Shown: one piece after another, positions 5,475-34,620 of the stretch
Numbering within the stretch: position 1 is the stretch's first letter
How the letters are laid out: every line of letters begins with the position of its first letter
DNA from: Octopus sinensis
Taxonomy: Eukaryota
Assembly: GCF_006345805.1 (NCBI RefSeq)
Contig: NW_021835224.1
Location: 1-41,626 of the forward strand
DNA: 41,626 bases
Direction: 5' to 3'
Notes under the pieces: model-generated
Databases searched by the model: none
Seen by the model: the letters and a program-made list of their open reading frames with translations, nothing else
Told to the model about the DNA's origin: nothing
Program-made: the position numbers and the translations under genes

Positions 5475-5477
<3 letters not shown>

Positions 5478-8400
5478 TCAACAATTGAGGGCAAAATTAA
5501 TTAATTATTATCAATTTCACACAAGTGTTCAGTATGCAAGGGACCATTCAAGGCGAATTCAAATTATTACATTATATAAAAGGGCTTAGTAAAATAAATA
5601 CTTTGCCGCATACTGAACTCATTAGAAATAGCAGCTAAAAAACTTTTTTAAGGCTATTTCTAATACTTAAAGAAAATCTCTCTCATATATAGTGTTTGCA
5701 TAATTTAACAACTCACAAAAGTTTGGGGGTAATGACATCGAAAAATCAAATGCTAAGGTTATTCGAGAACGTACGTTTCAAGATTAGTCAAAACACATTT
5801 CTATCATCTCGGCTCGGAATTCCTTGGTTTTGGATTGGAAACACTGAAAATAAGAACATACCTTCTCGAAGATCTGCTCCCAACTAACAGTGTCAACAAA
5901 TTCAAAATAAGCAAGCGAAAATCTCTGTTCTCCCCTTTCCACCAGCGTGGGTTAAAATCATCAAACTCTATGCTTTTTCGGTAAAGTCCGAAGCATTAAT
6001 CAGAGGGAGATTATTATAATTTCAACAATTGAGGGCAAAATTAATTAATTATTAATCAATTTCACCAAGTGTTCAGTATGCAAGGGACCATTCAAGGCGA
6101 ATTCAATTATTACATTATATAAAAGGGCTTAGTAAAATAAATTACTTTGCCGCATACTGAACTCATTAGAAATAGCAGCTAAAAAACTTTTTTAAGGCTA
6201 TTTCTAATACTTAAAGAAAATCTCTCTCATATATAGTGTTTGCATAATTTAACTCACAAAAGTTTTGGGGTAATGACATCGAAAAATCAAATGCTAAGTT
6301 ATTCGAGAACGTACGTTTCAAGATTAGTCAAAACAACATTTCTATCATCGGCTCGGAATTCCTTGGTTTGGATTTGGAAACACTGAAAATAAGAACATAC
6401 CTTCTCGAAGATCTGCTCCCAACTAACAGTGTCAACAAATTCAAAATAAGCAAGCGAAGAATCTCTGTTCTCCCCTTTCCACCAGCGTGGGTTAAAATCA
6501 TCAAACTCTATGCTTATTTCGGTAAAGTCCGAAGCATTAATCAGAGGGAGATTAATTATAATTTCAACAATTGAGGGCAAAATTAATTAATTATTAATCA
6601 ATTTCACCAAGTGTTCAGTATGCAAAGGGACCATTCAAGGCGAATTCAAATTATTACATTATATAAAAGGGCTTAGTAAAATAAATTACTTTGCCGCATA
6701 CTGAACTCATTAGAAATAGCAGCTAAAAAACTTTTTTAAGGCTATTTCTAATACTTAAAGAAAATCTCTCTCATATATAGTGTTTGCATATTTAACTCAC
6801 AAAATTTGGGGGTAATGACATCGAAAAATCAATGCTAAAGGTTTGATTCGAGAACGTACGTTTCAAGATTGTCAAAACAACATTTCTATCATCGGCTCGG
6901 AAATTCCTTGGTTTGGATTTGGAAACACTGAAAATAAGAACATACCTTCTCGAAGATCTGCTCCCAACTAACAGTGTCAACAAATTCAAAAAGCAAGCGA
7001 AGAATCTCTGTTCTCCCCCCCTTTCCACCAGCGTGGGTTAAAATCATCAACTCTATGCTTATTTCGGTAAAGTCCGAAGCATTAATCAGAGGAGATTAAT
7101 TATAATTTCAACAAATTGGGCAAAATTAATTAATTATTAATCAATTTCACCAAGTGTTCAGTATGCAGGGACCATTCAAGGCGAATTCAAATTATTACAT
7201 TATATAAAAGGGCTTAGTAAAATAAATTACTTTGCCGCATACTGAACTCATTAGAAATAGCAGCTAAAAAACTTTTTTAAGGCTATTTCTAATACTTAAA
7301 GAAAATCTCTCTCATATATAGTGTTTGCATAATTTAACTCACAAAAGTTTGGGGGTAATGACATCGAAAAATCAAATGCTAAGGTTATTCGAGAACGTAC
7401 GTTTCAAGATTAGTCAAAACAACATTTCTATCATCGGCTCGGAAATTCCTTGGTTTGGATTTGGAAACACTGAAAATAAGAACATACCTTCTCGAAGATC
7501 TGCTCCCAACTAACAGTGTCAACAAATTCAAAATAAGCAAGCGAAGAATCTCTGTTCTCCCCCTTTCCACCAGCGTGGGTTAAAATCATCAAACTCTATG
7601 CTTATTTCGGTAAAGTCCGAAGCATAATCAGAGGGAGATTAATTATAATTTCAACAATTGAGGGCAAAATTAATTAATTATTAATCAATTTCACCAAGTG
7701 TTCAGTATGCAAAGGGACCATTCAAGCGAATTCAAATTATTACATTATATAAAAGGGCTTAGTAAAATAAATTACTTTGCCGCATACTGAACTCATTAGA
7801 AATAGCAGCTAAAAAACTTCTTTAAGGCTATTTCTAATACTTAAGAAAATCTCTCTCATATATAGTGTTTGCATAATTTAACTCCCAAAAGTTTGGGGGT
7901 AATGACATCGAAAAATCAAATGCTAAGGTTATTCGAGAACGTACGTTTCAAGATTAGTCCAAAACCAACATTTCTATCATCGCTCGGAAATTCCTTGTTT
8001 GGATTTGGAAACACTGAAAATAAGAACATACCTTTCGAAGATCTGCTCCCAACTAACAGTGTCAACAATTCAAAATAAGCAAGCGAAGAATCTCTGTTCT
8101 CCCCCTTTCCACCAGCGTGGGTTAAAATCATCAAACTCTATGCTTATTTCGGTAAAGTCCGAAGCATTAATCAGAGGGAGATTAATTATAATTTCAACAA
8201 TTGAGGGCAAAATTAATTAATTATTAATCAATTTCACCAAGTGTTCAGTATCAAAGGGACCATTCAAGGCGAATTCAAATTATTACATTATATAAAAGGG
8301 CTTAGTAAAATAAATTACTTTGCCGCATACTGAACTCATTAGAATAGCAGCTAAAAAACTTTTTTAGGCTATTTCTAATACTTAAAGAATCTCTCTCATA

Positions 8401-8681
8401 TATAGTGTTTGCATAATTTAACTCACAAAAGTTTGGGGGTAATGACATCGAAAAATCAAATGCTAAGGTTATTCGAGAACGTACGTTTCAAGATTAGTCA
8501 AAACAACATTTCTATCATCGGCTCGGAAATTCCTTGGTTTGGATTTGGAAAACTGAAAATAAGAACATACCTTCTCGAAGATCTGCTCCCACTAACAGTG
8601 TCAACAAATCCAAATAAGCAAGCGAAGAATCTCTGTTCTCCCCTTTCCAACAGCGTGGGTTAAAATCATCAAACTCTATGC
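5475..8681 (-). repeat. 543-bp tandem array, arm 1 (5 full units plus one ~490-bp unit); hammerhead motif on the minus strand of each unit
   Basis: Unit starts (atttcaacaattgagggc) at 5475, 6019, 6561, 7105, 7648 and 8191. Copies are near-identical apart from small indels. The left end abuts (TA)n. Confidence 0.95.
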
Positions 8682-8992
8682 CTTTATATATGTAATAATT
8701 TGAATTCGCCTTGAATGGTCCCTTTGCATACTGAACACTTGGTGAAATTGATTAATAATTAATTAATTTTTGCCCTCAATTGTTGAAATTATAATTAATC
8801 TCCCTCTGATTAATGCTTCGGACTTTACCGAAATAAGCATAGAGTTTGATGATTTTAACCCACGCTGGTGGAAAGGGGAGAACAGAGATTCTTCGCTTGC
8901 TTATTTTGAATTTGTTGACACTGTTAGTTGGGAGCAGATCTTCGAGAAGGTATGTTCTTATTTTCAGTGTTTCCAAATCCAAACCAAGGAAT

Positions 8993-9049
8993 TTCCGAGC
9001 CGATGATAGAAATGTTGTTTTGACTAATCTTGAAACGTACGTTCTCGAA
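8993..9049 (+). ncRNA. Putative minimal type-I hammerhead ribozyme (U4C variant) in the 543-bp unit
   Basis: ttccgag-CCGATGA-(tagaaatgttgttttgactaatctt)-GAAA-cgtacg-TT-ctcgaa. Helix I is cgag/ctcg, helix/loop III is the palindrome ACGTACGT, and predicted cleavage is after GUU at 9043. Helix II is weak. Confidence 0.6.
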
Positions 9050-9538
9050 TAACCTTAGCATTTGATTTTTCGATCATGTCCTTACCCCCAAACTTTTGTG
9101 AGTTAAATTATGCAAACACTATATATGAGAGAGATTTTCTTTAGTATTAGAAATAGCCTTAAAAAAGTTTTTTAGCTGCTATTTCTAATGAGTTCAGTAT
9201 GCGGCAAAGTAATTTATTTTACTAAGCCCTTTTATATAATGTAATAATTTGAATTCGCCTTGAATGGTCCTTTGCATACTGAACACTTGGTGAAATTGAT
9301 TAATAATTAATTATTTTGCCCAATTGTTGAAATTATAATTAATCTCCCTCTGATTAATGCTTCGGACTTTACCGAAATAAGCATAGAGTTTGATGATTTT
9401 AACCCACGCTGGTGGAAAGGGGAGAACAGAGAGTTTCTTCGCTTGCTTATTTTGAATTTGTTGACACTGTTAGTTGGGAGCAGATCTTCGAGAAGGTATG
9501 TTCTTATTTTCAGTGTTTCCAAATCCAAACCAAGGAAT

Positions 9539-9595
9539 TTCCGAGCCGATGATAGAAATGTTGTTTTGACTAATCTTGAAACGTACGTTCTCGAA
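9539..9595 (+). ncRNA. Putative minimal hammerhead ribozyme, second copy in arm 2
   Basis: Identical motif to 8993-9049. Minus-strand copies occur near 5762, 6302, 6847, 7388, 7932 and 8472; those near 5762 and 7932 have indels in the core. Confidence 0.6.
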
Positions 9596-10338
9596 TAACC
9601 TTAGCATTTGATTTTTCGATGTCATTACCCCCAAACTTTTGTGAGTAAATTATGCAAACACTATATATGAGAGAGATTTTCTTTAAGTATTAGAAATAGC
9701 CTTAAAAAAGTTTTTTAGCTGCTTATTTCTAATGAGTTCAGTATGCGGCAAAGTAATTTATTTTACTAAGCCCTTTTATAATATATATAAATATTATATA
9801 TATACATATATATACATATACAACTATATATAATATGCATGCCACACACACACACAGACATACATATGTGTATATATTATATATATAATATATATTATAT
9901 ATATATATAATGCATGTTGTATGTATGTATATATGTCTGTGTATATACAATGATGATGTCTAAAAGTTCATAGCAGTTCTGTTATCATAGGAGGAATGAG
10001 GAAAAAACCAGAAACAGGAAAGATTCCATTCTTACTGCTCCTCTCCCCTCTCCTCCCCCAGCTCCACCACCACCACCACCACCAGCACCACCACCACCAT
10101 CACCATCATCATTATCATCGCTGCCACCTTCCCCCCCATACCCCGCACCACATACCCCCACCTCACCCCACCCGCCCTGCCCCGCCCCGAAGCATGGATT
10201 CTACCCAACTGGGGTACGTAGCATTTCCTGGTTGACTCAGCTCACGGTTGGTTCCTTCTTTCCTTCCCCCCTTCTTTCTTTCAAAAATTCTTCTGGCTAT
10301 TTTCATTCATTCATACTTGCTTGCTCTCTTTCTTTCAC

Positions 10339-10386
<48 letters not shown>

Positions 10387-10526
10387 TCCCCATATATGTG
10401 TATATATATAGAAATACTCACACACACACACACACACACAGGATCTTTTCGGTTTGAACGGCAGTTTTTTAAAATAAATTCCACGTAACTAAACACTTTT
10501 AAACTAATCATTAATTAACAAAGTTA

Positions 10527-10940
10527 AGGAGTGGCTGTGGGTAAGTAGCTTGCTAACCAACCACATGGTTCCGGGTTCAGTCCCACTGCGTGGTCATCTT
10601 GGGCAGTGTCTTTCTGCTATAGCCCCGGGCTGACCAAAGCCTTGTGAGTGGATTGGTAGATGAAACTGAAAGAAGCCTGTCGTATATATGTTATATATAT
10701 ATATATATATATTATGTTGTGTTTTGTGTGTCTGTGTTTGTCCCCTTAGCATGCTTGACAACCGATGCTGGGTGTTTACAATCCCATCCCCGTCACTTAG
10801 CGGTTCGGCAAAATGAGACCGATAGAATAAGTACTGGGCTTACAAAAAGAATAAGTCCCGGGGTTGATTTGGTCAACTAAAGGTGGTGCTCCAGCATGGC
10901 CGCAGTCAAATGACTGAAACAAGTAAAAGAGTAAAAGAGT
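10527..10940 (+). mobile_element. tRNA-derived SINE (family A)
   Basis: Head ggagtggctgtg(t)ggtaag...ggttccgggttcagtccc, cttgggca(a)gtgtctt core, internal (TA/TG)n and tail gactgaaacaagtaaaagagtaaaagag. Many copies in the window. Confidence 0.85.
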
Positions 10941-11114
10941 ATAGAGTTACTTCGGAAATCATTATCGGGTTAATTAACTTCTGTTAACTCAGGTCAACTT
11001 GAGTTAACTTTAATTAACTTTAATTCAATTGAAGTTAACGAGTTTTATAGTTTTGGCACTTTTTAAAGGTGTTTTCAGGTGGTCTTGGAGCAAAAACTGA
11101 TTTTTGGGGTTTTA

Positions 11115-11625
11115 TCTATATATATAAAACTGTAGTTGTGTGAGTGTCTGTCCCCTTCGATTTAGATTCCTAACTCCTCCCACATTTTGCGGTGCAGTTT
11201 AACCAAATTCGGGTAGCTTATAGTCGTGATTCATATCGAGCCCGTCTGACTATTAGCGCGCGTCTACAATGAGTCTACGATTTAAAAAAAAATTTAACAT
11301 CATTTTTTATTCCATTTTAATGCATAAAATGCATCGTGTGTCGATGGCGGCGGAGTTGGCGTCCACGCTCACAGCTGCACCTGTTTGCTTCTCCCCCTTC
11401 TTCCCTCCCTCGTGAAGCTGTGGGGAAGGGAGTGTAAGGAAATCAACGCCGTTAAAGCATTAAGGAGACCAGCGTTCTTTTAGACAAACGACTCATGGCT
11501 TGAAGACACCAAAACAGAAATGGCTAAGAAGCCCGAATTGGCATCTATAAGGGAAGTAACTCTCTAAAAATGCTTATATAGTTATTTCCCTTACAAACCC
11601 GAGCAATGCCGGGCGATACTGCTAG
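11115..11625 (+). mobile_element. Non-autonomous Helitron
   Basis: 5' A|TCTATATATATAAAA, 3' hairpin cccgagcaatgccggg 8 nt before CTAG|T. Inserted between A and T with no target-site duplication. Confidence 0.85.
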
Positions 11626-11778
11626 TCTATAATAAAAATTAATGTGAATGGTTTATTGATAACTTTCATCACATTTTTAAAGACAACTGAATCTTGGTTA
11701 TCGAAGTTAACTTTTACATTAAAGGATTAAAAGTTAACGAAGTTAACATTCCAATTAATGATGTTCACATTTATTAAA

Positions 11779-12380
11779 CTAGCAGTATCGCCCGGTGTTG
11801 CTTGGGTTTGTAAGGGAAATAACTATATAAGCATTTTTAGAGAGTTATAGCCAAAAAATAGCAAAAAAATGCATTAAAAATGGAAAAAAATGATGGTAAT
11901 TTTTTTTAAAATCGTAGACTCATCGTAGACATTTTTAGAGAGTTACTTCCCTTATATAATAGCGAAAAAATGCATTAAAATGGAAAAAAAATGATGGTAA
12001 ATTTGTTTAAAAATCGTTGACTCATCGTAGACATTTTTAGAGAGTTACTTCCCTTATATAATAGCGAAAAAATGCATTAAAATGGAAAAAAATTATGGTA
12101 AATTTTTTTTTAAATTGTAGACTCATCGTAGACATTTTTAGAGAGTTACTTCCCCTATATAATAGCGAAAAAATGCATTAAAATGGAAAAAAATGATGGT
12201 AAATTTTTTTTTAAATCGTTGACTCATCGTAGACGCGCCCTAATACCCAGAAGGGCTCGATATGAATCACGATTATAAGATACCCGGTTTTGGTTAAACT
12301 GCATCGCAAAATGTGGGAGTAGTTAGGAATCTAAATCGTAGGAGACAGACAGCACACAACTTCACTTTTATATATAAAGA
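11779..12380 (-). mobile_element. Non-autonomous Helitron (same family) with internal ~94-bp tandem repeats
   Basis: On the minus strand it starts TCTTTATATATAAAA and ends with a hairpin plus CTAG, at an A|T site. About 4 copies of catttttagagagtta...gactcatcgtaga at ~11832-12232. Confidence 0.85.
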
Positions 12381-12544
12381 TATCCTCTAAATATAGCAAC
12401 GAAGCATTATTGGATATAACTTAACCATGTCAAATCACCGAAAACCCATTTTTTCATCTTCAGTCTCATTATTCTGGTTTGAGAAGATCCGTCAAACCAA
12501 GTGTACCCATTCGAATGGCATGTAAAGAACACCTTTCGAGTGTG

Positions 12545-13200
12545 GAAGCACATGGCCTGGTGGTTAGAGCAGCGGACTTGTAGTCGAGGGATCGCGGATT
12601 CGAATCTCAGACCGGACGATGTGTGTGTTTATGAGCAAAACACCTAAGCTCCACGCGGCTCCAGCAGAAGGTAATGGCGAACTTCTACTGACTCTTTCAC
12701 CACAACATTCTCTCACTCTTTCTTGAGGAGGTACATGGCTTAGTGGTTAGAGCAGTGAACTTGCAGTCGAGGGATTGTGGGTTCGAATCTCAGACTGGAC
12801 GATGTGTGTGTTTATGAGCAAAACACCTAAGCTACACACGGCTCTGGCAGAAGGTAATGGTGAACTTCTACTGACTCTTTCACCACAACATTCTCTCACT
12901 CTTTCTTGAGGAGGTACATGGCTTAGTGGTTAGAGCAGTGAACTTGCAGTCGAGGGATTGTGGGTTCGAATCTCAGACCGGGTGATGTGTGTGTTTATGA
13001 GCAAAACACCTAAGCTACACACGGCTCTGGCAGAAGGTAATGGCAACACTTCTGCTGACTCTTTCGCCACAACTTTCTCTCACTCTTTCCTTCTGCATCT
13101 TCCAGCTCACCTGCGACGGACCGGCGTCCCGTCCAGGTGGGGAACCTATACGCCAAGGAAACCTTATGAGGCCGGCATAGCTCGAGAAGGAAGAAACAAC
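12545..13200 (+). mobile_element. tRNA-derived SINE (family C): triplicated 5' half plus one 3' half
   Basis: Three ~182-bp copies of a tRNA-like head (tggcttagtggttagagc...gggttcgaatctc) and body. Only the third continues to a 3' part ending ...gaagaaacaac. Confidence 0.75.
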
Positions 13201-13522
13201 ACCTTTCGAGCGTTGGGTCTCACGGAGGCAAAGTGGCTGAGTTCCTTTCAAGAGTTGGGCCTCGCGGAGGCAATGACAAAGACCTTTGACATTATTTTGT
13301 TCTGGAGAAGGAGACCCATCAAGCTGAGAAAAATAGCAGTCTTGGCAGACACCGGTGTCACACAAACGGCACTCTGGTGTCATGCAAATGCAAGGTACTC
13401 TGGTGTCATGCAAATGGTACGTAAAAGTACCACTCTCGGAGTGGTTGGCATTAGGAAGGGCATCGAACTGTAGAAAACCATGCCAAACCAGACTGGAATC
13501 TGGTGCAGCCTTCCAGCTTGCC

Positions 13523-14701
13523 TATTTCTTTACTACCCACAAGGGGTTAAACATAGAGGGGACAAACAAGGACAGACATAGGTATTAAGTCGATTACATC
13601 GACCCCAGTGTGTAACTGGTACTTATTTAATCGACCCCAGTGTGTAACTGGTACTTATTTAATCGACCTCGAAATGAAGAAAGGTAAAGTCGACCTCGGC
13701 GGAATTTGAACTCAGAACGTAACGACAGACGAAATACCTATTTCTTTACTACCCACAAGGAGCCAAACACAGAAGGGACAAACAAGGACAGACAAATGGA
13801 TTCAGTCGATTAGATCGACCCCAGTGTGTAACTGGTACTCAATTTATCGATCCTGAAAGGATGAAAGGTAAAGTCGACCTCGGCGGAATTTGAACTCAGA
13901 ACGTAACGGCAGACGAAATACCTATTTCTTTATTACCCACAAGGGGATAAACACAAAGGGGACAAATAAGGACAGTCACAGGTATTAAGTCAATTACATC
14001 GACCCCAGTGTGTAACTGGTACTTAATTTATCGATCCCGAAAAGATGAAAGGTAAAGTCGACCTCGGCGGAATTTGAACTCAGAACGCAATGGCAGATGA
14101 AATACGTATTTCTTTACTACCCACAAGGGGCTAAACACAGACGGGACAAACAAGGACAGACATAGGTATTAAGTCGATTACATCCACCCCAGTGCATAAC
14201 TGGTACTTAATTTATCGATCCTGAAAGGATGAAAGGCAAAGTCGACCTTGGAGGAATTTCAACTCAGAACGTAGCGGCAGACGAAATACCTATTTCTTTG
14301 CTACCCACAAGGGGCTAAACACAGAGGGGACAAACAAGGACAGACATAGGTATTAAGTCGATTACATTGACCCCAGTGCGTAACTGGTACTTAATTTATC
14401 GACCCCGAAAGGATGATAGGCAAAGTCGACCTGGGCAGAATTTGAACTCAGAACGTAACGGCAGACGAAATACCTATTTCTTTGCTACCCACAAGGGGCT
14501 AAACACAGAGGGGACAAACAAGGACAGACATAGGTATTAAGTCGATTACATGGACCCCAGTGCATAACTGGTACTTAATTTATCGACCCCGAAAGGATGA
14601 TAGGCAAAGTCGACCTCGGCAGAATTTGAACTCAGAACGTAGCAGCATACGAAATACCGCTAAGCATTTTGCCCAGCGTGCTAACGCTTCTGCCAGCTCG
14701 C
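13523..14701 (-). repeat. Tandem array of SINE family B: one head plus 6 body units of ~184 bp, nested in an RTE tail
   Basis: Units start near 13523, 13739, 13923, 14107, 14291 and 14475. RTE tail halves flank the array (13420-13521 and 14702-14755). Confidence 0.85.
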
Positions 14702-14969
14702 TGTCCAACCCATGTCAGCATGGACAACAGACGTTAAATGATGACGACGATGATGTACAACCGATGCCAGCTATAATGTCTCTACAAAATCTGTCAAGGT
14801 AGCCATAAGTTTGTCAGGTGTTTCATTTAACAATGATGTGGAAAATGTGGCTTTATGGATTCTTTGAGTCAGGAGTCAGTGATTCCAGGGCATTGACAGG
14901 TAATTGGAATGGGGGCAAGAATTCGCAAACAATGAAGAATACATCACTGATGGAAAATAAGAATCAAAG

Positions 14970-15351
14970 GCTATCTGTCTGTCTGTCTTCGTATTTGCAT
15001 ATCAGTCTAATCTATTTTATCTATCTGTCTGTCTGTCCATCTAACTATCTATCTATCCATCTATATATGTATGTCTCTCTCTCTCTCTCTCCCTCTTTAT
15101 CCATCGATCTATCTACCCTTTTATGCCTCTCTCTCTCGCTCTCTCTCTCTCGCTTTCTCTCTCTCTCTCTTTATCTTGCTTTCTCTCTCTCTCTTACTAC
15201 CTATCTGTCCATTTGTCCATCTGTCCATTTGTCCATCTGTCCATTTGTCTATCTGTCTATTTATCTATCAATCCATCCATCCGTCTGTCTATCTATCTAT
15301 CTATCAGTGTGTCTGTCTGTCTGTCTGTCTATCTCTCTCTCTCTCTGTCTC

Positions 15352-15402
<51 letters not shown>

Positions 15403-15999
15403 GTCTATCAGTGTGTCTGTCTGTGTGTTTGTCTATCTGTCTGTCTATCTATCTATCTATCTATCTATCTGTCTATCAGTGTGTCTGTCTGTGTGTTTGT
15501 CTATCTGTCTGTCTATCTATCTATCTATCTATCTATCTGTCTATTTATATATCTATCTACCTATCTATCTATATGTCTACCGAGGTTACCGTGGTCTTTT
15601 TCGTAGGCTTTTCTTCCCACGGATAAACCTTACTTGCTTTCCCCTTTACACCGTACATCATGACACTGATACACGATCCCTATTGATCGTTTTTTTATCG
15701 TCTTCCCCTTTTTTCCTCTTTTTTCTTTTTCTTTTCTTTTCTTTTCTTTTCCTTTTTTCCCTTTTACGATCCCTTGTGATCGAAAACCTATGCTATCCCC
15801 CCAAAAGAAAAGCTCTACCTTGTAATTTGTCCCATCTGTGTGCAGCCCTGTGTGGCCAATAAAGAAACTTATCTGTCTGTCTATCTATCTGTCTATCTAT
15901 CTATCTATCAGTGTGTGTCTGTCTATCTATCTATCTATCTATCTATTTATCTATCTCTCTCTCTATATATATATATCTATCTCTCTCTATATATATATA

Positions 16000-16063
<64 letters not shown>

Positions 16064-16120
16064 AGTGTGTCTGTCTGTGTGTATGCCTGTGCATCTGTCT
16101 GTGCGTCTGCCTGTCTATCC
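14970..16120. repeat. (TCTA/TCTG)n and (CT)n microsatellites
   Basis: Directly visible simple repeats. Confidence 0.95.
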
Positions 16121-18090: not shown

Positions 18091-18137
<47 letters not shown>

Positions 18138-18236: not shown

Positions 18237-18267
<31 letters not shown>

Positions 18268-18375: not shown

Positions 18376-18413
<38 letters not shown>

Positions 18414-21732: not shown

Positions 21733-22027
21733 CTCTGTCGGTTACGACGACGAAGGTTCCAGTTGATCCGATCAACGGAACAGCCTGCTCATGAAATTAA
21801 CGTATAAGTGGCTGAGCACTCCACAGACACGTGTACCCTTAACGTAGTTCTCGGGGATATTCAGCGTGACACAGAGAGTGACAAGGCCGGCCCTTTGAAA
21901 TACAGGTACAACAGAAACAGGAAGTAAGAGTGAGAGAAAGTTGTGGTGAAAGAGTACAGCAGGGATCACCACCATCCCCTGCTGGAGCCTCGTGGAGCTT
22001 TAGGTGTTTTCGCTTAAGAAACACTCA
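21733..22027 (-). mobile_element. 5'-truncated SINE related to family C
   Basis: The minus strand reads gcgaaaacacctaaagctccacgaggctccagcag...tctttcaccacaactttctctcactctt, matching the body at 12630-12720, but with a different 3' part. Confidence 0.65.
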
Positions 22028-22873
22028 CGTAAAAAGCACCATCCGAACGTGGCCGATGCCAGCACTGCCTTGACTGGCTTCTTTGCCGGTGGCATATAAA
22101 AAGCACCATCCGAACGTGGCTGATGCCAGTGCCGCCTCGACTGGCTTCTGTGCCGGTGGCATATAAAAAGCCCCATCCGAACGTGGCTGATGCCAGTGCT
22201 GCCTCAACTGGCTTCTGTGCCGGTGGCATATAAAAAGCACCATCCGAACGTGGCTGATGCCAGTGCCGCCTCGACTGGCTTCTGTGCCGGTGGCACGTAA
22301 AAAGCACCATCCGAACGTGGCCGATGCCAGCACTGCCTTGACTGGCTTCTTTGCCGGTGGCATATAAAAAGCACCATCCGAACGTGGCTGATGCCAGTGC
22401 CGCCTCGACTGGCTTCTGTGCCGGTGGCACGTAAAAAGCACCATCCGAACGTGGCCGATGCCAGCACTGCCTTGACTGGCTTCTTTGCCGGTGGCATATA
22501 AAAAGCACCATCCGAACGTGGCTGATGCCAGTGCCGCCTCGACTGGCTTCTGTGCCGGTGGCACGTAAAAAGCACCAACCGATCGTGGCTGATGCCAGAC
22601 TCCCCTTGCACCTGTGCCGGTGGCACGTAAAAAGCACCAACCGATCGTGGACACTGCCAGACGCTCCTGGCACCTGTGCCAGTGGCATGTAAAAAGCACC
22701 CACTACACTCACGGAGTGGTTGGTGTTAGGAAGGGCATCCAGCTGTAGAAACACTGCCAGATCAGACTGGAGCCTGGTGCAGCCTCCTGGCTTCCCAGAT
22801 TCCGGTCGAACCGTCCAACCCATGCTAGCATGGAAAACGGACGTTAAACGATGATGATGATGATGGTGATGAT
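22025..22873 (+). mobile_element. RTE-type 3' tail module with about 10 tandem 67-bp units and (GAT)n tail
   Basis: aaaaagc(a/c)cc recurs at 22031, 22098, 22165, 22232, 22299, 22366, 22433, 22500, 22567, 22628 and 22691. The terminal part matches the LINE end at 38590-38768. Confidence 0.85.
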
Positions 22874-23528: not shown

Positions 23529-23583
<55 letters not shown>

Positions 23584-23993: not shown

Positions 23994-23999
23994 TGTTGG

Positions 24000-24400
24000 T
24001 AGAGGATGCTGGACGCGAACAAGGTTTATTAGAGCAACGACTAGGGAAGTAATTATGGAAAAGACAAAAGAATGATACGTTTTGGTGATGAGTAAAATCC
24101 GACAACCTCGTTGGCAGAAGAGGATCCATCATGGGAATTTGGTTCTGACGATGGCAGGGATTTCCAGAGAACAACTGTTTGGGGACAGAAGCTTTATGAA
24201 TGAAAGGAGTTATGATTGAGAGAAGACTCAACAGAGAAGTGATGTGTTTAGAATGAGAATCAAGTGATGGGTTTAAGGATTTTGGCAGAGGGCAGGAAAC
24301 CAGAGGGTCACCAGAGCAATGAGCATGGAAATACTTATAGAAAAGAGAGAACAAAGGATAAATTTTGATGATGAAACGAAGATACCAACCCAGAAGAAAG
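24000..24400 (-). pseudogene. Decayed CR1/L2/Jockey-group LINE ORF2 C-terminal fragment
   Basis: Minus-strand peptides LFSLFYKYFHAHCS and, in a shifted frame, TVVLWKSLP resemble the conserved LFYKY...LWNxLP C-terminus of these LINEs. Confidence 0.45.
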
Positions 24401-24464
24401 AAGAGGACTCTCCACGTTAACAACTCATTTGCTAATTAGAAGACGATGGCGGTGAGTATATATA

Positions 24465-25055
24465 GGCGCAGGAGTGGCTGTGTGGTAAGTAGCTTGCTTA
24501 CCAACCACATATGGTTCCGGGTTCAGTCCCACTGCGTGGCACCTTGGGCAAGTGTCTTCTGCTATAGCCCCAGGCGACCAAAGCCTTTTGAGTGGATTTG
24601 GTAGACGGAAACTGAAAGAAGCCTGTCGTATATATGTATGTATATATATATATATATATATATGCGTGTGTGTGTGTTTGTGTGTCTGTGTTTGTCCCCC
24701 TCGCATTGCTTGACAACTGATGCTGGTGTGTTTATGTCCCCCGTCACTTAGCGGTTCGGCAAAAGAGACCGATAGAATAAATACTAGGCTTACAAAGAAT
24801 AAGTCCTGGGGTCGATTTGCTCGACTAAAAGGTGGTGCTCCAGCATGGCTGCAGTCAAATGACTGAAACAAGTAAAGGAGTATATATTTACACACACATA
24901 TGTATATATATATATATATATATTAGCGGTTCGGCAAAAGAGACCGATAGAATAAGTACTGGGCTTACAAAGAATAAGTCCCGGGGTCGAGTTGCTCGAC
25001 TAAAGGCTGTGCTCCAGCATGGTCGCAGTCAAATGACTGAAACAAGTAAAAGAGT
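24465..25055 (+). mobile_element. SINE family A, full length plus a duplicated 3' third (24923-25055)
   Basis: Consensus match; ttagcggttcggcaaaagagaccg...aacaagtaaa occurs twice. Confidence 0.85.
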
Positions 25056-26021
25056 ATATATATGTATGTACATACACACAATGTACCTCTTTCAGTTTTT
25101 TGCCCACAGTGTCCACCCGCAAGGCTCTGGGGCAACACCACAAAATACTTATCAAAGGCGCCACGCAACAGAACTGAAACCAGGACCAGGTAGCCGACAG
25201 GCAAACTTCTTACCACGCAGCCATCACTGCCCCTATGTACTATTTACGTTCTATGGCGTGGTTCCATTTAACCGAAATGGCTTCTTCATTTATTATCGCT
25301 CCGGCGTTGCATGACTGGCCAAGTGCGAACACATTAGAGATTTCCAATGTGCCTCTAGCCTCAGTTAATTTCGTTAGCTTGTGTGTGCTACAATATCTTT
25401 TCTGTGTGGTGCAGCTGTAAATCACTTTTAGATAATTCCTATTGAATAATTTTCTGTAGTGATGGTAAATGGGGAAAGAGTTTATCAGCGAAAGGAAACT
25501 TCTTGAAGTCTTTGATTTTGGTGTTTAAGGACAAGTCACTCTGTGCTTGGGTGTGTGTCTGTAGGTATTAAGAAAGGAGTGCGTATGTGTGTATATGTAT
25601 AATGGTTTTTTAAATGAGCATAGATTATTTGATGTATATGCATGTGTGTGTGTGTATATATATATATATATACATACATATATATTATATATATATATAT
25701 ATATAATATATATATTATATATATATATATCTATATGTACTTATACACGCACATATATGGAATCTGAAAATACACACATATGTACAAGTGTGTGTGTATA
25801 TATATGTTCATATATATACGTTCATATATATATAAATATATATACATACACACACAAATGTATATGTATTTATAAATACAGATATCTGCATACATACATA
25901 CATATATACATACATATATATACACACCTATTTGTAAAATAACCGCACTCACTCACTCACTATTCAATGAGTACAATGTAATCATTTCATTTACAATATA
26001 TATATATATATATATACACAT

Positions 26022-26064
<43 letters not shown>

Positions 26065-26214
26065 CACACACACACACACACATATATATATACACAGACG
26101 TATATACACAATACATATACACATACATACATACACGCGCACACACACACATACTTACATGCATATATCTGTACTAAAGACACATATACATACACATTTA
26201 TATTCATTTACTGT

Positions 26215-26507
26215 CACACACATACACACACACACACACACATATAGACGTTCTCCTTCTATTTCTGTCTCCACACACACACACACACTCTCTCTCTCTC
26301 TTTATTTCCTCCTTAGACGCAAATCCACACACACACACACACACACATATAGATGTTCTCTTTCTATTTCTGTCTCCACACACACACACACACACACTCT
26401 CTCTCTCTCTCTCTTTATTTCCTCTTTAGACGCAAATCCACAACACACACACACACACACACACTCTCTCTCTCTCTCTCTCTTTATTTCCTCTTTAGAC
26501 GCAAATC

Positions 26508-26539
<32 letters not shown>

Positions 26540-26690
26540 CGTTCTCCTTCTATTTCTGTCTCCACACACACACACTCTCTCTCTCTCTCTCTCTCTCTTT
26601 ATTTCCTCTTTAGACGCAAATCCACACACACACACACATAGACGTTCTCCTTCTATTTCTGTCTCCACACACACACACACACACACACTC
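26215..26690. repeat. Composite minisatellite built on (CA)n/(CT)n with two spacer types
   Basis: tagacgttctccttctatttctgtctc and tttatttcctctttagacgcaaatc each recur about 4 times. Confidence 0.85.
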
Positions 26691-26835
26691 CTCGATGTCA
26701 ACGTTGGAAGGTATTAAAAGAGTTTTACTCATTGAAAAAAAAGCGAGTTTCTTTTTTTTTCCTTTTTTTTTTAGTGAAACCCATTTAATTACAATTGGAG
26801 AATTTTTACCTCAGAGAAGAATTGGAATTCACTAC

Positions 26836-27226
26836 AAGAAGAAGGAGAAGAAGGAGGTGGAGAAGGAGAAGGAGGAGGAGGAAAAGAAGAAGAAGAAGAA
26901 GAAGAAGGTGGAGAAGGAGACGAAGAAGGAGAAGAAGAAAGAGGAGGAGGAGAGAACAAAGAAGAAGAAGAATAAGAAGAAGAAAGAGAAGGAGAAGAAG
27001 AAGAAAGAGAAGAAGAAGTAGAAAGAGAAGAAGAAGAAGAAGAAGAGGAAGGAGAAGGAGAGCACAAAGAAGAAGAAGAAAGAGAAGGAGAAGAAGAAGA
27101 AGAAGGAGAAGAAAAAGAAGGAGAAGAAGAAGAAGAAGAAAGAGAAGAAGAATGGTGAAGGATAAGAAGAAGAAAAGAAAGAAGGAGAAGAAGAAGAAAG
27201 AGAAGAGGAAGAACGAAGGAAGAAGG
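26836..27226. repeat. (GAA/GGA)n purine tract
   Basis: Directly visible simple repeat. Confidence 0.95.
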
Positions 27227-27529
27227 CAAACAAGTCTTTAAGGACAACAAAAATAATGATAAAAATAAAAATAATAATAAAAAAAAACTCCTAAATAATC
27301 TGAACAACAACAAGAAGAAGAAGAATAAAAGGTGTGTCGGGGTTTTGTGGAGAGAAAGAAAGAGTTGAGAAGAGAGAAAGAAAGAGTTTTGCTTTTTGCG
27401 TTCAACGCTTCTGGCTTCAAAGAGGAGAGAAAAGAAGACAACGTTTTTCGACGTCAATGAACGGAGGAGGAATGGGGGAGGAAGGAATGTTCAGAATTGT
27501 GGAAGGAGATTCTTCTTAAAACCTGGTAA

Positions 27530-28320
27530 TTGTGGTGGTGGTGCTGGTTGTGATGGGGTGACAGTGCTGGTGATGGTGGTGGTTGTAGTGTTGGTGGTGT
27601 TGGAGGTTCCGGTGGTGGTTGTGGTTGTAGTTGTGGTTGTAGTGGTGGTGGTGTTGGAGGTTCCGGTGGTGGTTGTAGTTGTGGTGGTGGTTGTAGTGTT
27701 GGTGGTGTTGGAGGTTCCGGTGGTGGTGATAGTGGTGTAGGTGGTTGTAGCAGTGGTGGTGATAGTGGTGTTGGAGGTTCTGGTGGTGGTTGTAGTTGTG
27801 GTGGTGGTTGTAGTGGTGGTGGTGTTGGACGTTCCGGTGGTGGTTGTAGTTGTGGTGGTGGTGGTTGTAGTGTTGGTGGTGTTGGAGGTTCCGGTGGTGG
27901 TTCTGGTGGTGGTTGTATTTGTGGTGGTGGTTGTAGTGTTGGTGATGTTGGAGGTTCCGGTGATGGTGATAGTGGTGTTGGAGGTTCCGGTGGTGGTTGT
28001 GGTGGTGGTTGTAGTGGTGGTGTTGGAGGTTCCGGTGGTGGTTCTGGTGGTGGTGGTGGTGTTGGAGGTTCCGGTGGTGGTTGTGGTGGTGGTGGTGGTG
28101 GTGTTGGAGGTTCCGGTGGTGGTTGTGGTTGTAGTTGTGGTTGTAGTGGTGGTGGTGTTGGAGGTTCCGGTGGTGGTTGTAGTTGTGGTGGTGGTTGTAG
28201 TGGTGGTGGTGTTGGTAGCGATAGTGTTAGTTGTGGTGGTGGTGATAGTGGTGTTGGTGGTTGTAGTGATGCTGGTGATGGTGGTGATGTTACTGTTGTT
28301 CTTGTTAGTGGTTAAGGCAC
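27530..28320. repeat. (GGT)n-based minisatellite with a recurring gtgttggaggttccg spacer
   Basis: The spacer recurs more than 10 times. Confidence 0.9.
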
Positions 28321-28605
28321 TGGTATAGTATTGTGATAAGTAGGGGTATAGTGGTGGTGGTCACATATGGAATAGCAGTGGTGGTGGCGGTAGTTGTGTT
28401 GTAGGGGTGGAAACTCTTAGACATGGTGGAGGTTGTAGCAGGGGCAATTCTTAAACGTAGGAAGGATGGTGGTAGTGATGGTGGTGGTGGTAGTACAGCT
28501 GGTACTTAGAGGTGTAGTAGCGGTGGTAGTTTAGGAGGAAGTAATGGTGTTGGTGGTAGTTGTGGCAGTGGTGCTGGTTTATAATTGTAGTGGCTGCAGT
28601 TTTGG

Positions 28606-29481
28606 TTGTTTAACCCTAGGTCAATCCCGATCAAGTAGAGAGACCTATGATCAAAGACGTTCCAGCTGTGACCATCCCCTCTTTTATTCAGGCATAGTGT
28701 ATCTAGGACTACATTATCCAATGTATAGTACAGGAGTTAGTATTAGTGGCTATAGCTGTTATTGTTTAACCCCAGGTCAGTCCAGATCCAGTTGAGAGAC
28801 CTATGATCAAAGATGCTCCAGCTATGACCATCCCCTCTTTTATTCAGGCATAGTGTATCTAGGACTACATTATCTAATGTATAGTATAGTAGTTAGTATT
28901 AGTGGCTATAGCTGTTATTGTTTAACCCCAGGTCAGTCCAGATCCAGTTGAGAGACCTATGATCAAAGATGCTCCAGCTATGACCATCCCCTCTTTTATT
29001 CAGGCATAGTGTATCTAGGACTACATTATCTAATGTATAGTATAGTAGTGAGTATTAGTGGCTATAGGTGTTATTTAACCCCAGGTCAGTCCTGATCCAG
29101 CAGACCTATGATCAAAGACGTTCCAGCTGTGACCATCCCAACTTTTATTCAGGCATAGTGTATCTAGGACTACATTATCTAATGTATAGTATAGTAGTTA
29201 GTATTAGTGGCTATAGCTGTTATTGTTTAACCCCAGGTCAGTCCTGATCCAGTTGAGAGACCTATGATCAAAGATGCTCCAGCTATGACCATCCCCTCTT
29301 TTATTCAGGCATAGTGTATCTAGGACTACATTATCTAATGTATAGTATAGTAGTTAGTATTAGTGGCTATAGCTGTTATTGTTTAACCCCAGGTCAGTCC
29401 AGATCCAGTTGAGAGACCTATGATCAAAGATGCTCCAGCTATGACCATCCCATCTTTTATTCAGGCATAGTGTATCTAGGA
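28606..29481 (+). repeat. ~156-bp tandem array (about 5.5 units)
   Basis: Repeated gtttaaccccaggtcagtcc...gacctatgatcaaaga...gaccatcccctcttttattcaggcatagtgtatctaggactac. Confidence 0.95.
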
Positions 29482-29849
29482 CAACGCCAATGAATCCATT
29501 TAATTTTCACCAAAGATATTTTGCAGCCTGAAAGAAATTCCATTGATATTCCTTCGTCTGGTTGAGCAACCAACAACAAAAGCTGTGTTGTTTGTTCGTT
29601 ACTTTGAGCATTAGCTCCAGGTCAGTTCTGATAATCTAAAGTAGTCTACTTGTAACCATCCCCAAAGGAAGGGGGGGAGGGGTAAAACCCTACCATGCCC
29701 CCCCCCCCAAAAAAAAACAATCACAATAACAGATTGTAAAAGAGCGAAAAAGACGGAAAAATTTGGATTTTAAAAGATTTTCTGAAGACAAAAAAAAAAG
29801 GAACAAAATCTCAAAAATGGGGGTTTTTTCATTCATTTGTTGTTGTTAT

Positions 29850-30525
29850 CATTCTTCTTCTTCTTCTCTCTCCTCCTCCTCCTACTTCTTCCTTTCATTC
29901 TTTTTTTGTCTTCTTCTTCTCCTCCTCCTACTACTACTTCTTCTCTTTCCTTCCTCCTCCTACTTCTTCCTTTCATTCTTCTTCTTCTCTATCCTCCTAC
30001 TCCTACTTCTTCCTTTCATCCTTTTTTGTCTCCTCTTCCTCCCACTTCTCTCTCTCCTCCTCCTCCTTCCTTTCATCCTCTTTTGTCTTCTCCTCCTCCT
30101 ACTTCTCTCTCTCCTCCTCCTCCTTGTTGTCGTTTTCTTCTTCTCTCTCCTCCTCCTCCTCCTTCCTTTCATTCTTTTTTGTCTTCTTCTCCTCCTACTT
30201 CTCTCTCTCCTCCTCCTCCTTGTTGTCTTCTTCTTGTCCTCCTCCTCCACTTTCCTTTCATCCTTTTTTTGTCTCCTCCTCCTCCCACTTCTCTCTCTCC
30301 TCCTCCTCCTCTTTCCCTTCATCCTTTTTTGTCTCCTCCTCCTCCTACTTCCCTCTCTCTCCTCCTCCTCCTCCTTGTTGTCTTCTTCTTGTCCTCCTCC
30401 TCCTCCTCTTTCCCTTCATCCTTTTTTTTTGTCTCCTCCTCCTCCCACTTCTCTCTCTCTTCCTACTTCTCTTTCCCTTCATCCTTTTTCTTGTCTCCTC
30501 CTCCTCCTCCTACTTCCCTCCTTCC
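29850..30525. repeat. (CCT/CTT)n pyrimidine tract with a higher-order unit
   Basis: Recurring cctttcatcctttttgtctcctcctcctacttctctct. Confidence 0.9.
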
Positions 30526-30729
30526 CTGCACAAATCAAAATGCGCAACAGCAACGTATGCAAAGCGTGATTCAAACGAAGAAGCCGTTGCACGCCATCGC
30601 AGTGGTACGTACCACCACCACCGCCGCTATCGCCGTCGGTTGCGGTTGTGGTGATGGCACCAGTGTGCCAACGGAGCTGGGCCACAGCCATCATTCTCAA
30701 GTGCTTGTCAAGTATTGCTGCAAAACTGT

Positions 30730-30765
<36 letters not shown>

Positions 30766-31510
30766 CACATGAGTGCAATTACGTTGTGTCATGTTGGGTG
30801 TATATATGCATGTCTATATATACATATGCATACGTACACCTCTGATGTAATTAACGCATCACAATTTGGTTTTTATCATATATATACATGTATACATACA
30901 TATATACATACATACATATATCTATATATATATATATATATATAATATATATATATAATTATATATATATACCATATATATAATATACACATATATACAT
31001 ACAAACATATATACATATATACACACACACATATATATATATACATTCATACATATATGCATTAGCTAATATATATATACATATGTATATATATATATGT
31101 ATATATATGTTATATATAATGTTATGTATATATGTATATATATGTATATGTATGTATATGTAATATTTATATGATTTATTATATATGTAAATATAATATA
31201 TAATGTATACATATACATACCTATATGTTTATGTGTGTATTTACGTGTATGCATGTGCATATGTGTATATGTATGTATATGTGTATGTGCGTGTGTGCTT
31301 GTGTATGTGTACATAAGTAAACATACATATGTATATATGTGTGTGTATGTACACATGTATATATACATATATATATATATAGTGTGTGTGTGTAGATGTA
31401 CAAGCACATGTCTATAAGTACATGTATATACATACATATGTAAATATGTATACACATGTGCATATACGTGTTTGCATGCACACATATATGTATATGTATG
31501 TATATATATG

Positions 31511-31559
<49 letters not shown>

Positions 31560-32329
31560 TTACATAAACATATGTATGTATATACACACACATATATGTG
31601 TATATATGTGTATGTGTTGTATATTAGTTAAAGCGCTCTTTATGCTTTGCGATGTCTGTTTTCTTTTTTTCTCGTTAAAATTGTTGGTATTTTTCTCATT
31701 TTTGTAAATTCAATTATTTACTTATTCATTGATTTCATGTGTCAACCCATGACACATTGCTGATATTCTGTGCATACATACATACATAACATATATATAT
31801 ATATATATATATAAGATATATATATATTAATATAGAATATATTGTATACATGACTAGATATTATATATATAATACATACATATATATATATATATGTTAT
31901 ATATATCTATATATATAGATATATATAATATAGGTATATATATATATATGTATATATATATAGTATATGTATGTATATATATACATGTATATATATTATT
32001 AATTGTATATTATAATATATATATGTATGTAATAGATATATATATATATGTATGTATCTATACATATGTTACATTACTCGGAGTCAAGATAACTCTGAGT
32101 TCAGATGCCGAAGTGGAAAGCACAACACAATCTCTTCGGTTATCTGGCTATTTGAAAACGTTATGAAAAAATACCGTTAAAATGAAGGGAAATTACTCTG
32201 TTATAACTCTGCTTTGCTGCGTACTTATACATCGCTCGCTTTTTTCGTCATAAAAATTATATAAAAATACATAAAAATATATAAAAATATATAAAATCTT
32301 CTTGGGACATTACACAGAAAGCATGTTCT

Positions 32330-34215
32330 TTAATCCCTCCTAGGATTAAAGGCTTGGAAGATTTCGAAGCGGACCTGCTGAAGATCATGAGCAAAATAAA
32401 GTTTCGTAAGTCTTTTAACAATTTCCAACATAAATTGAAAAAAGATATTGATCATATAAAAAGCTCCAAGAAAAAAGCACTTTTTTCGGATAAAACCAAG
32501 AACTTATACCTGGTAGATAACAGCAAATACACACAACTCTTACACAACAGCATCATTAATAATTATACTAAGGCTAGGGCACAGACATATAAGAAATTAA
32601 TAAAGAAGCTAGCGTCATCGCCGCTAAACTTAAATTAGATAAAAAAATAGAAACCCTCCCCCAAAAAGAGGCCTTTATTACTATTAAAGACCACAAAGAA
32701 AACTTCCTTTCCAACCCTAAATGTAGGCTTATCAACCCAGCCAAGTCAGAACTAAGGATTATTAGCAAAGAAATTTTAGAAAATAAATACGAAAATTAAG
32801 ACCGACACTAGGCTAGTGCATGGTCAATAGTATAGAAGTCGTAGACTGGTTTAAAGCTATTAAGAATAAGAAAAAAGCGAGTTTACACAATTCGATATGT
32901 TGATTTTTATGCCTCTATCTCTAAAGAACTGCTAGATAAACCTAATCTTCGCTAGTGACTTCATAGAAATTAGTACCAATGATAAGGATATAATCTTCCA
33001 TGCTAGAAAGACATTACTTTCAGTGAGAATGCAAAGTGGGTAAAAAACACGACACGGAGGGCGCTTTCGATGTGAGCATGGGTTCATATGATGGGGCAGG
33101 CATCTGTGATCTGAATTGGAATCTCTTTCTCCTAGACCTTCGTAAGACATTCCCTAACGTACATTTCGCCATCTACAAAGATGATGCCCTCGCCTTAACA
33201 GCTAATACAAATGGACCAGCACAAGATCGTTTTAGGAGGATATTATCCAGTTAATGAAACACTTCGGACTTAGTATAACTATAGACACTAACCTGACGGT
33301 TGTCAATTTTTAGACGTTTCCTTAGATCTTAATAATAATATTTATAAGCCTTATAGGAAGCCCAATGATAGACTAAGTATATTAATGTAGGTCATGCCAT
33401 CCCCCTATAGTATTCAAAATTTAGTTAAAAATATTAGTAAGAGGATTTCTAGCCTCTCATCTAATGAGGACATCTTCAATAGCGTTGCCCAGTTATAATA
33501 AAGCTTTAAAAGATAGTGGTTTTAGTGAAAAAATAAAATATACACCATCACCAGCCCAACAATAAGGAAAAGGAAAATAGAAATAGGAAGGTCATCTGGT
33601 TTACGCCCCTACTCACCCGAGGTGGCCTTCAATATAGGTAAATATTTCCTAGCACTGATAGATAGACATTTTCCAGTTAACCATGCTTATAGGAAACTCT
33701 TCAATAGACACAATTTAAAATTAGTTTTAGTTCAACTACCAATTTTAAAAACATAATCAATCATAACATACAAAAAAACACAAGAAGAAAACAGCTGTTC
33801 ATGCAGGAATAAAGAATTGTGCCGCTAAATGGAGCTTGCATGTCCAAGACCATCATATATGAAGCTACCGTAAACTCTTAATAACACTAAAGACACCGTT
33901 TCGACGAAGAAATACGTGGGCCTGACAGAGGGTAATTTCAAGGCCAGGTTCAATAACCACACTTTGAGCTTTAGGCACTGGAACAAAAGAAAAGCGACAC
34001 AATTATCCAATCATATTTGGTCTTTAAGAGATAAAGGTGTCGATTATAACATACAATGGAAGATTTTGGCCAGATGTAAGCCCTATACAACGGCAGCGGA
34101 AGGTGCGGTTTATGCGACATGGAGAGATGGCTTCATCTGGAAAAGCAGCTTAGACCCTACCACATGTCTAAATACAAGGACAGAGCTTTTCGGATCATGC
34201 CCCACATGTGACTAA
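32330..34215 (+). pseudogene. Penelope-type reverse transcriptase plus GIY-YIG endonuclease (frameshifted)
   Basis: PKCRLINPAKSEL (~32716), FD..DFYASIS (~32890), FDVSMGSYDGA (~33066), YKDD (33173); then CSCRNKELC...C..KTIIYEA...KYVGLTEGNFKARFNNH...LSNHIW...IQWKIL. Confidence 0.88.
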
Positions 34216-34443
34216 ATTTCTGTTACGTTTGGTCCCCTAAAGAAAACGGATAGAACATGCTTTCTGTGTTATGTCCCAAGAAGATTTATATATTTTATAT
34301 ATTTTTATATATTTTTATGTATTTTTATATAATTTTTATGACGAAAAATGCGAGCGATGTATAAGTACGTGGGCAAAGCAGAGTTATAACAGAGTAATTT
34401 CCCTTCATTTTAACGGTATTTTTCATAACGTTTTCAAATAGCC

Positions 34444-34506
34444 AGATAACCGAAGAGATGGTGTTGTGGATTTCCACTTCGGCATCTGAAACTCAGAGTT
34501 TTATCT
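34444..34506 (+). ncRNA. Putative hammerhead ribozyme in the Penelope pseudo-LTR (inverted copy at 32087-32145)
   Basis: agataa-CCGAAGA-gatg...catc-t-GAAA-ctcagag-TT-ttatct. Helix I is agataa/ttatct, helix II is gatg/catc, and helix III is minimal. Confidence 0.65.
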
Positions 34507-34620
34507 TGACTACCGAGTAATGTAACATATTGTATAGATAAATTTCCTCTATTTACATAATATTGAGGTCTCTTTCTTTCTTTTGTTATCTTACCGTTTT
34601 ATCAATATATAGTATGTATG

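Follow-up and report, generated by a model that had tools for sequence, protein, structure and literature searches.

An octopus retrozyme array and a Hydra-clade Penelope-like element share an insertion footprint and predicted hammerheads with separately derived C4 cores

Two tail-out inversions on one octopus contig

We analysed a 41,626-nt stretch of the Octopus sinensis genome (assembly GCF_006345805.1, contig NW_021835224.1, positions 1 to 41,626, forward strand; hereafter the window). The window is a microsatellite-rich animal contig holding two tail-out inversions, a tandem array at 5471-9790 and a Penelope-like element (PLE) at 32052-34611 (Table 1). An earlier note on this DNA had described both as an antisense arm on the left and a sense arm on the right, with 3' ends pointing outward into (TA)n. 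This architecture stands, with (TA)n beyond all four outer 3' ends; the description 'antisense left, sense right' holds equally for either strand of any tail-out inversion. The three ribozyme traits that the note had listed as shared (a CCGANGA core, a U before GAAA and a GUU cleavage triplet) were also located, with cores in both arms of each element, and U4 of the uridine turn is replaced by C4 in both. We consider it probable that the two are an unrelated Hydra PLE and a non-coding retrozyme, that their footprint is common to them through Penelope-type enzymes, and that C4 arose independently in each, giving a hammerhead that is likely slower but working.

An autonomous-type PLE and a non-coding retrozyme

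By its motifs, the element at 32052-34611 is an autonomous-type PLE of the Hydra clade. Natural copies (loci L109-L111) carry single open frames of 717 aa in an element of <3 kb, and the alignment of copies shows the RWK, DKT, CxCx5C linker, CxxC and CxH marks and no CCHH. These motifs, together with insertion into (TA)n, are the marks of the Hydra clade (PMC8557442; published work is cited throughout for the passages covered here). The (TA)n insertion, the inverted 5' copy and the tail are all present. Pfam returned only GIY-YIG on pieces of the open reading frame (E 0.0026, under Pfam's cut-off) and no family for the full frame at E<=0.01, and the reverse transcriptase (RT) call is therefore from motifs read by eye. 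Some frame breaks in the window copy may be long-read errors.

The published Hydra clade (Craig et al. 2021, PMC8557442) has the same marks, a length of <3 kb, (TA)n insertion, an inverted 5' arm, a tail and a 3' hammerhead, and the stem III of Penelope-3_HM is that of the window PLE. Two features differ. The core is CUGA in all 26 published Hydra rows (PMC8557442 File S2) but CCGA in the window subfamily, and the tail measures 68 nt in the window family against the 30-40 nt stated for PLEs (PMC8557442). The canonical CUGANGA core is found in older relatives and is replaced by CCGAAGA in the young Hydra subfamily; because clade membership is defined on the protein, this would set the element apart as a variant subfamily only.

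The array at 5471-9790 fits, as far as its letters tell, a metazoan non-LTR (long terminal repeat) hammerhead retrozyme: a dispersed, non-coding repeat with a 546-bp unit. A DNA search gave 322 matches on many contigs, with identities of 97-99% outside the query among the 150 matches listed, and the subfamily of the window array has 964 core matches. No PLE coding match was found inside the arrays. Sister-subfamily loci (L139-L158) held no autonomous parent, nor did L109-L138, where only an older array copy was found; apart from that copy, the unit showed no homology to the Hydra family or, within L109-L138, to a PLE pseudo-LTR (pLTR). A relative at 69% identity (L085) is also a non-coding array, with a U4 core.

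Metazoan non-LTR retrozymes are likewise dispersed non-coding tandem units with one type I hammerhead each, and circular intermediates and mobilisation by PLEs have been proposed for them (Cervera and de la Pena 2020, PMC7229834; Li et al., bioRxiv 10.64898/2026.07.22.740005). The array differs in its C4 core and in that no homology to a PLE pLTR was found here. The Chlamys MRC1-type elements are, like the array, multicopy head-to-tail non-autonomous PLE insertions; they differ in that their 3' ends are similar to those of their helpers and that most are without a canonical hammerhead (PMC8557442).

Other retrozyme-like elements with U4 cores lie at L085:3200-4080, L113:600-1760, L056 and L264 (the 563-bp relative at 69% identity and a 477-bp family), with short ends that recall those of the window array in their CCCT and AT-rich look. 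A long array in one orientation at L032:7887 (G000:C4:115948887) has its 5' end near the short end after non-TA sequence, and has one variant state in common with the window array.

A shared insertion footprint

Among 38 array loci, 30 were inverted and eight single-armed. Arrays with both ends in view always paired one long with one short 3' end, ~100 nt apart (29/29; L039 and L069, joined, make a 30th). The Hydra family behaved similarly: 34 of 38 loci were inverted, and of these 29 paired long with short, three long with long and two long with another end. Each family has two fixed 3' ends, one per arm; by rough arithmetic, a free choice of start in each arm would give about half mixed pairs. 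(TA)n follows 68/68 and 70/73 of the 3' ends in the two families. The comparison of insertion sites and inversion structure that the earlier note had suggested thus returned the same (TA)n target and the same tail-out inversion for both. A 3'-end motif common to the array and the Hydra family was sought by eye, with only a weak AT-then-C-rich likeness.

Tail, inversion and (TA)n bias are known for Hydra PLEs (PMC8557442). For the Poseidon element PAc (Frangieh et al. 2024, PMC11167929), the tail is accounted for in vitro by initiation at two internal sites, as it would be here, and both target strands are primed, cut and extended; a dimer is predicted and the hammerhead is protein-assisted in that system. 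The PAc start sites showed no strand preference in vitro (PMC11167929), whereas long pairs with short nearly without exception in the octopus families.

The two arms of an insertion appear to come from one RNA. The 5' ends of the Hydra arms lay within 40 nt of each other in 7/31 copies against 1.35 by permutation (p 0.0001). The 31 loci are the 38 Hydra loci plus the window and minus L106 and seven others that were single-armed or whose structure was complex or extended upstream (L076, L077, L079, L084, L086, L094 and L104). Junction overlaps of 1-6 nt occur in 19/31 and 14/35 insertions of the two families. Because the arms overlap in sequence, their 5' ends coincide and their junctions share 1-6 nt, we infer paired priming of both arms on one RNA. 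Arrays add a further constraint, since private variants sit in all or nearly all units of both arms. Such single-locus variants were fixed in L031 (6/6), L053 (9/9), L059 (5/5) and L068 (4/4), and nearly so in L052 (9/10 and 10/11); five array variants were at intermediate frequency. The pattern points to a template of one unit, for which a circle is the simplest form. Alternatively, the fixed variants could stem from a homogeneous source array outside the sample or from template jumps along a linear monomer. The tail-plus-inversion footprint and the one-template evidence were not met in the covered text of PMC7229834 (where 'inverted' is absent) or of bioRxiv 10.64898/2026.07.22.740005.

Because array and PLE leave the same insertion footprint, the array was likely mobilised by a Penelope-type enzyme. 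A Neptune-like family (RVT_1 E 1.6e-6, GIY-YIG E 6e-6; clade label from motifs read by eye) shows the same inversion, tail and target as Hydra and the array, so the footprint does not single out the Hydra family as the helper. The autonomous/non-autonomous partnership raised in the earlier note accordingly survives in kind, through the PLE footprint, and is not supported for this particular pair, which has no shared sequence and no true chimera among the fetched loci. Mobilisation of the array by this Hydra protein, without common descent, is plausible, and we lean mildly against it. Young Neptune-like copies (L119-L131, L209-L238) include long open frames (L120, L130) and have a tail of ~35-45 nt.

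No true chimeric array-PLE insertion was found among the fetched loci. The only cross-family junction, at L114, was considered as a chimera and rejected as a nested insertion into a TA tract, given its TA filler and the mismatched ages of its parts.

Could the array be a non-autonomous derivative of this very Hydra family, with the variant core inherited from it? Target and footprint are the same, both families were recently amplified (97-99% identity), the 4-bp stem III and GUU of the array are Hydra-like, and the unit length is near that of the Hydra non-coding spacer (~515 nt). Against these likenesses, and as the earlier note had remarked of the surrounding sequence, unit and PLE show no similarity (blastn best E 0.6); U4 ancestors in both families mean that C4 was not inherited, the tails differ (68 vs ~100 nt), and the sole cross-family junction is the nested one. 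We regard such a derivation as highly improbable.

Hammerhead motifs in both elements

Both window motifs fit a type I hammerhead of the dimer type: stems I and II, GAAA, an NUH triplet and a short palindromic stem III are all present. The descriptor, which was composed after the motifs had been seen, matched 0/3000 units, 1/1500 PLEs and 0/100 windows of resampled sequence. Rfam, run on the window at E<=1, gave no hammerhead among the best 150 of 163 matches. C4 proved conserved at the level of each family, with motifs identical to the window's in 193/233 array copies and 54/67 PLE copies. When two array copies were co-folded, the stem III palindromes paired.

The three shared traits are not of equal weight. 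The U before GAAA is structurally unlike in the two elements, being part of a U.U mismatch in the array and, in the PLE, one extra base that follows the G10.1-C11.1 pair; at this position older Hydra copies have mostly C and older array subfamilies A. It is, on this comparison, derived and not homologous between the two. By eye, the 26 Hydra rows of PMC8557442 File S2 have U before GAA in 18, GUU in 10 and CUGA in all 26, and the first two traits are present in Hydra elements from cnidarians, an echinoderm and a crustacean (PMC8557442). Because these two traits are common in published Hydra hammerheads, only C4 is unusual, and the proposal that U before GAAA and GUU mark a lineage is not supported.

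Separate origins of C4

The tracing of subfamilies indicates that C4 arose separately, from U4 relatives, in the three families followed (array, Hydra and Neptune-like) and was not co-inherited; each has U4 sister or older subfamilies, and the lineage-specific variant that the earlier note had envisaged is, in the sense of shared descent, not supported. Among the first 100 array matches, read by eye, 27 were C4 (26 of them of the window's subfamily), 73 were U4 and none had A or G, and the array tree nests C4 among U4 subfamilies. The Hydra family gave 13 C4 and 17 U4 copies, and 12 of the 13 C4 copies group in a single derived clade together with one U4 copy. In the Neptune-like family, where the triplet is CUA, a single clade, 1.1% divergent, holds 14 C4 copies, and 16 copies are U4. 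The array, Hydra/Neptune-like and family 4 trees were built with the position-4 column included.

Six repeat families in the genome carry C4, these three and three more. Family 4 (L239-L268) has 11,329 core matches, with 65 C and 35 T in the first 100 rows; another has 2,041 matches (89 C, 10 T, 1 A) and a third 295 (44 C, 56 T), each again in the first 100 rows and by eye. Genome-wide, one pattern class gave 3467 C against 5070 T (controls 422 and 603) and a second 9212 C against 11531 T (controls 9 and 7), so that C4 makes up ~40-45% of hammerhead-like matches in the two classes. When every core position of family 4 was allowed to vary, position 4 was 70 C and 30 T in the first 100 rows by eye, and every other core position had <=11 variants, mostly CpG decay. 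At subfamily level only U and C are seen at position 4. U4A and U4G are not known to be active.

CpG decay was considered as the source of the U4 copies and rejected: T4 travels with linked subfamily letters, and G5 decay is seen in 5/100 rows against 30 with T4. A rule that C4 always marks the youngest subfamily holds for the Neptune-like and Hydra families and is not shown for the array with loci picked by pattern; an earlier low divergence of array C4 copies stemmed from loci chosen by likeness to the window.

Family 4 is a very abundant short element with a minimal hammerhead, C4 and U4 subfamilies and 3' ends in (TA)n. Families 5 and 6 comprise L269-L280 and L281-L288; part of the family 5 copies have the same stem III as the window's Hydra element, and C4 may have been gained twice in family 6. 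L132, L133 and L129 hold further single or paired C4 motifs with stems of their own, in a Hydra-related lineage and another, and are possible extra origins.

Stem I changed along with the core. Its end pair went from U-A through U.G to C-G on the array C4 branch and from G.A to A-U on the Hydra C4 branch, which suggests compensatory reinforcement on two C4 branches. T>C accounts for 3/12 changes on the array branch, 3/5 on the Neptune-like branch and 2/5 on the Hydra branch. These figures bear on an explanation that needs no selection on the ribozyme at all, namely directional mutation while a lineage is active, such as A-to-I editing of antisense arms within fold-back RNA. In its favour, few changes are commoner than T>C on C4 branches, inversions give rise to long double-stranded RNA, and RNA editing is heavy in coleoid cephalopods. 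On the other side, T>C touches only 2.5-5.6% of ancestral T on these branches, the array has as many A>G as T>C changes, it is the sense strand that is copied, and the fixity of the other core positions is not explained by bias. A mutational origin of this kind seems to us quite unlikely.

With T>C at 2.5-5.6% of ancestral T, some C4 origins can be put down to nearly neutral drift at a site that tolerates the change. Selection is less likely than not; in its favour, none of the 26 published Hydra rows is C4 (PMC8557442) and all three traced gains run from U to C. The stronger proposal that follows is tentative: U4C may be a repeatedly selected tuning mutation, by which unrelated PLEs and retrozymes arrived in parallel at a slowed hammerhead, one that continues to yield monomer circles and spares the template while one enzyme dimer primes both target strands from two sites on it.

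Evidence on cleavage by C4 hammerheads

The C4 hammerhead is likely a slower, still working cutter. U4C reduces activity in vitro, but what remains is enough for a viroid in vivo, and the U10.1-U11.1 mismatch is the best-tolerated mispair (PMC3088659). The natural viroid hammerhead (Ambros and Flores 1998, cited in PMC3088659) has the same CCGA in its uridine turn, with reduced activity that is sufficient there and only predicted here; it is a single variant, whereas the octopus genome holds thousands of copies in several families. In the literature covered on U4C or CCGA hammerheads in PLEs, retrozymes and cephalopods, the viroid was the only mention; Lunse et al. 2017 and its supplements, the likeliest place, lie outside that coverage.

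Two retrozyme insertions, L324 and L355, have both arms fused to sense 18S ribosomal RNA (rRNA) at the first base after the predicted cut. In L324, with a C4-linked 3' stem, the overlap is 0-1 nt, most rRNA hits ending at base 207 of the 208-base query; in L355, of U4 type, the overlap is at least 3 nt. Such fusions would arise if a cut 5'-OH end were joined to a piece of rRNA, or if the template were switched where the RNA ends. No rRNA-type capture was noticed among the inversion junctions listed.

Several points weigh against separate origins of a working C4 ribozyme. The rRNA fusions are two events, found by looking at the cut site only, and L324 lacks a core of its own, its C4 state resting on the linked 3' stem alone. 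In general, 5' truncations are no more frequent at the cut site than expected, with three C4-type insertions in a 3-nt window against ~3 expected by rough arithmetic. Minimum-energy folds of single window array or PLE copies do not form the hammerhead; such misfolding of single copies would be expected of dimer-type motifs and is not proof of function. Pattern-picked array loci are 3.0% divergent for C4 and 2.8% for the U4 sister, the polarity of position 4 in family 4 is ambiguous (two changes are needed), families 3-6 were first met through C4-aware scans, and among bystander motifs U4-only families outnumber C4 families.

A further reading takes C4 as the mark of a dead or dispensable ribozyme under relaxed selection, with U4C as the first step of decay. 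It draws on the finding that hammerhead mutants left PAc insertion in vitro unimpaired (PMC11167929), on the eroded distal stem II of the young Hydra subfamily, on a stem I mismatch in one family 4 C4 subfamily and on arms that are copied straight past the cut site, so that uncut RNA is the usual template. It sits poorly with a core whose sole subfamily-level variation is U or C at position 4, with the compensatory stem I pairs gained on two C4 branches, with the monomer-template signature in C4 arrays and with the 18S rRNA fusion at the cut site of a C4-type copy. We judge it unlikely and retain a slower, working C4 hammerhead.

Other features of the window

The window also contains tandem arrays of 67, 184, 183, 156 and 101 bp, made of common interspersed-repeat pieces (168-381, 22026-22700, 13630-14658, 12550-13089, 28606-29482 and 11832-12234). 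Fragments of a LINE-type (long interspersed nuclear element) RT frame with an LLYADD motif, read by eye, lie at 36833-37442, and a 204-aa frame at 706-1320 presumably resembles the end of a pogo/Tigger-type transposase. Within the retrozyme array, the cores of two further units are damaged, one of them, near 7987 (-), without a C.

Table 1. Coordinates of the two inversions and their flanks in the window, with two rRNA-fused retrozyme insertions
Feature	Position	Strand	Details
(TA)n target flank, left of array	5427-5473		
Retrozyme array, inverted arm	5471-8681	-	546-bp units, ~5.9 in number; 'long' end outermost, at unit position ~111
Inverted-arm hammerhead copies	6304-8525	-	intact CCGATGA cores starting 8521, 7437, 6895, 6351
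Retrozyme array, sense arm	8683-~9790	+	2 units; outer end is the 'short' end, ~10 nt beyond the unit boundary
Array type I hammerhead, predicted	8996-9047	+	stem I 8996-8999/9044-9047; C4 core 9000-9006; U.U at stem II base; GAAA from 9032; palindromic stem III 9035-9042; predicted cut after 9043
Second hammerhead copy, array sense arm	9542-9593	+	core CCGATGA at 9546
(TA)n-rich flank, right of array	9777-9909		
(TA)n-rich flank, left of PLE	31791-32067		
Hydra PLE, inverted arm	32052-32329	-	copy of 34252-34543; ends at the 'short' end
Hammerhead copy in PLE inverted arm	~32085-32145	-	CCGAAGA at 32139; GAAA short by one A
Hydra PLE, sense arm as a whole	32330-34611	+	
Hydra PLE RT-GIY-YIG reading frame	32330-34212	+	5'-truncated, frameshifted; DKT, YKDD, CxCx5C linker
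GIY-YIG-like piece of the frame	33874-34212	+	
PLE type I hammerhead, predicted	34444-34506	+	stem I 34444-34449/34501-34506; C4 core CCGAAGA 34450-34456; extra U 34487; GAAA from 34488; stem III 34491-34499; predicted cut after 34500
PLE 'tail'	34540-34611	+	~68 nt, from the family's short to long 3' ends
(TA)n flank, right of PLE	34605-34675		
18S rRNA-fused insertion L324/L325	G000:C7:8476199-8476705		
18S rRNA-fused insertion L355	G000:C6:103742048		

Discussion

We propose that a dimer of the PLE enzyme would nick both strands of (TA)n and that reverse transcription would be primed at two internal sites on one RNA, 68 nt (Hydra) or ~100 nt (array) apart, the two cDNAs then joining head to head by microhomology. 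For arrays, the template would be a monomer that hammerheads, dimerised by their palindromic stem III, cut free and that is then circularised, so that each arm would be a rolling copy of the circular monomer. U4C would be the one core change that the fold tolerates, and it may spread by drift or by mild selection for slower cutting, as templates must stay uncut during copying. Because copying of each arm runs on past the cut site, its template has to have been left uncut or been religated; a slower cut would then be of little cost and perhaps helpful.

Much of what links the two elements is already in print, namely the architecture, the target and two of the three shared ribozyme traits, and the parallels drawn in the earlier note are mostly PLE biology. 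The durable new points are the convergence of U4C across families and the one-template footprints.

The strict pairing of long and short ends constrains models of PLE integration, and a PLE-specific footprint on an array without homology supports mobilisation of retrozymes by PLEs through a non-phylogenetic route. Descriptors that fix CUGANGA undercount hammerheads, because C4 accounts for ~40-45% of the matches in both pattern classes. Published work calls the role of PLE hammerheads unclear (PMC8557442; PMC11167929), and matched U4 and C4 subfamilies in several unrelated families offer ready pairs of constructs for testing it. If U4C does tune the ribozyme, a large share of genomic hammerheads would be invisible to CUGANGA-based searches, and the subfamily pairs would be natural experiments on the purpose of the hammerhead in PLEs.

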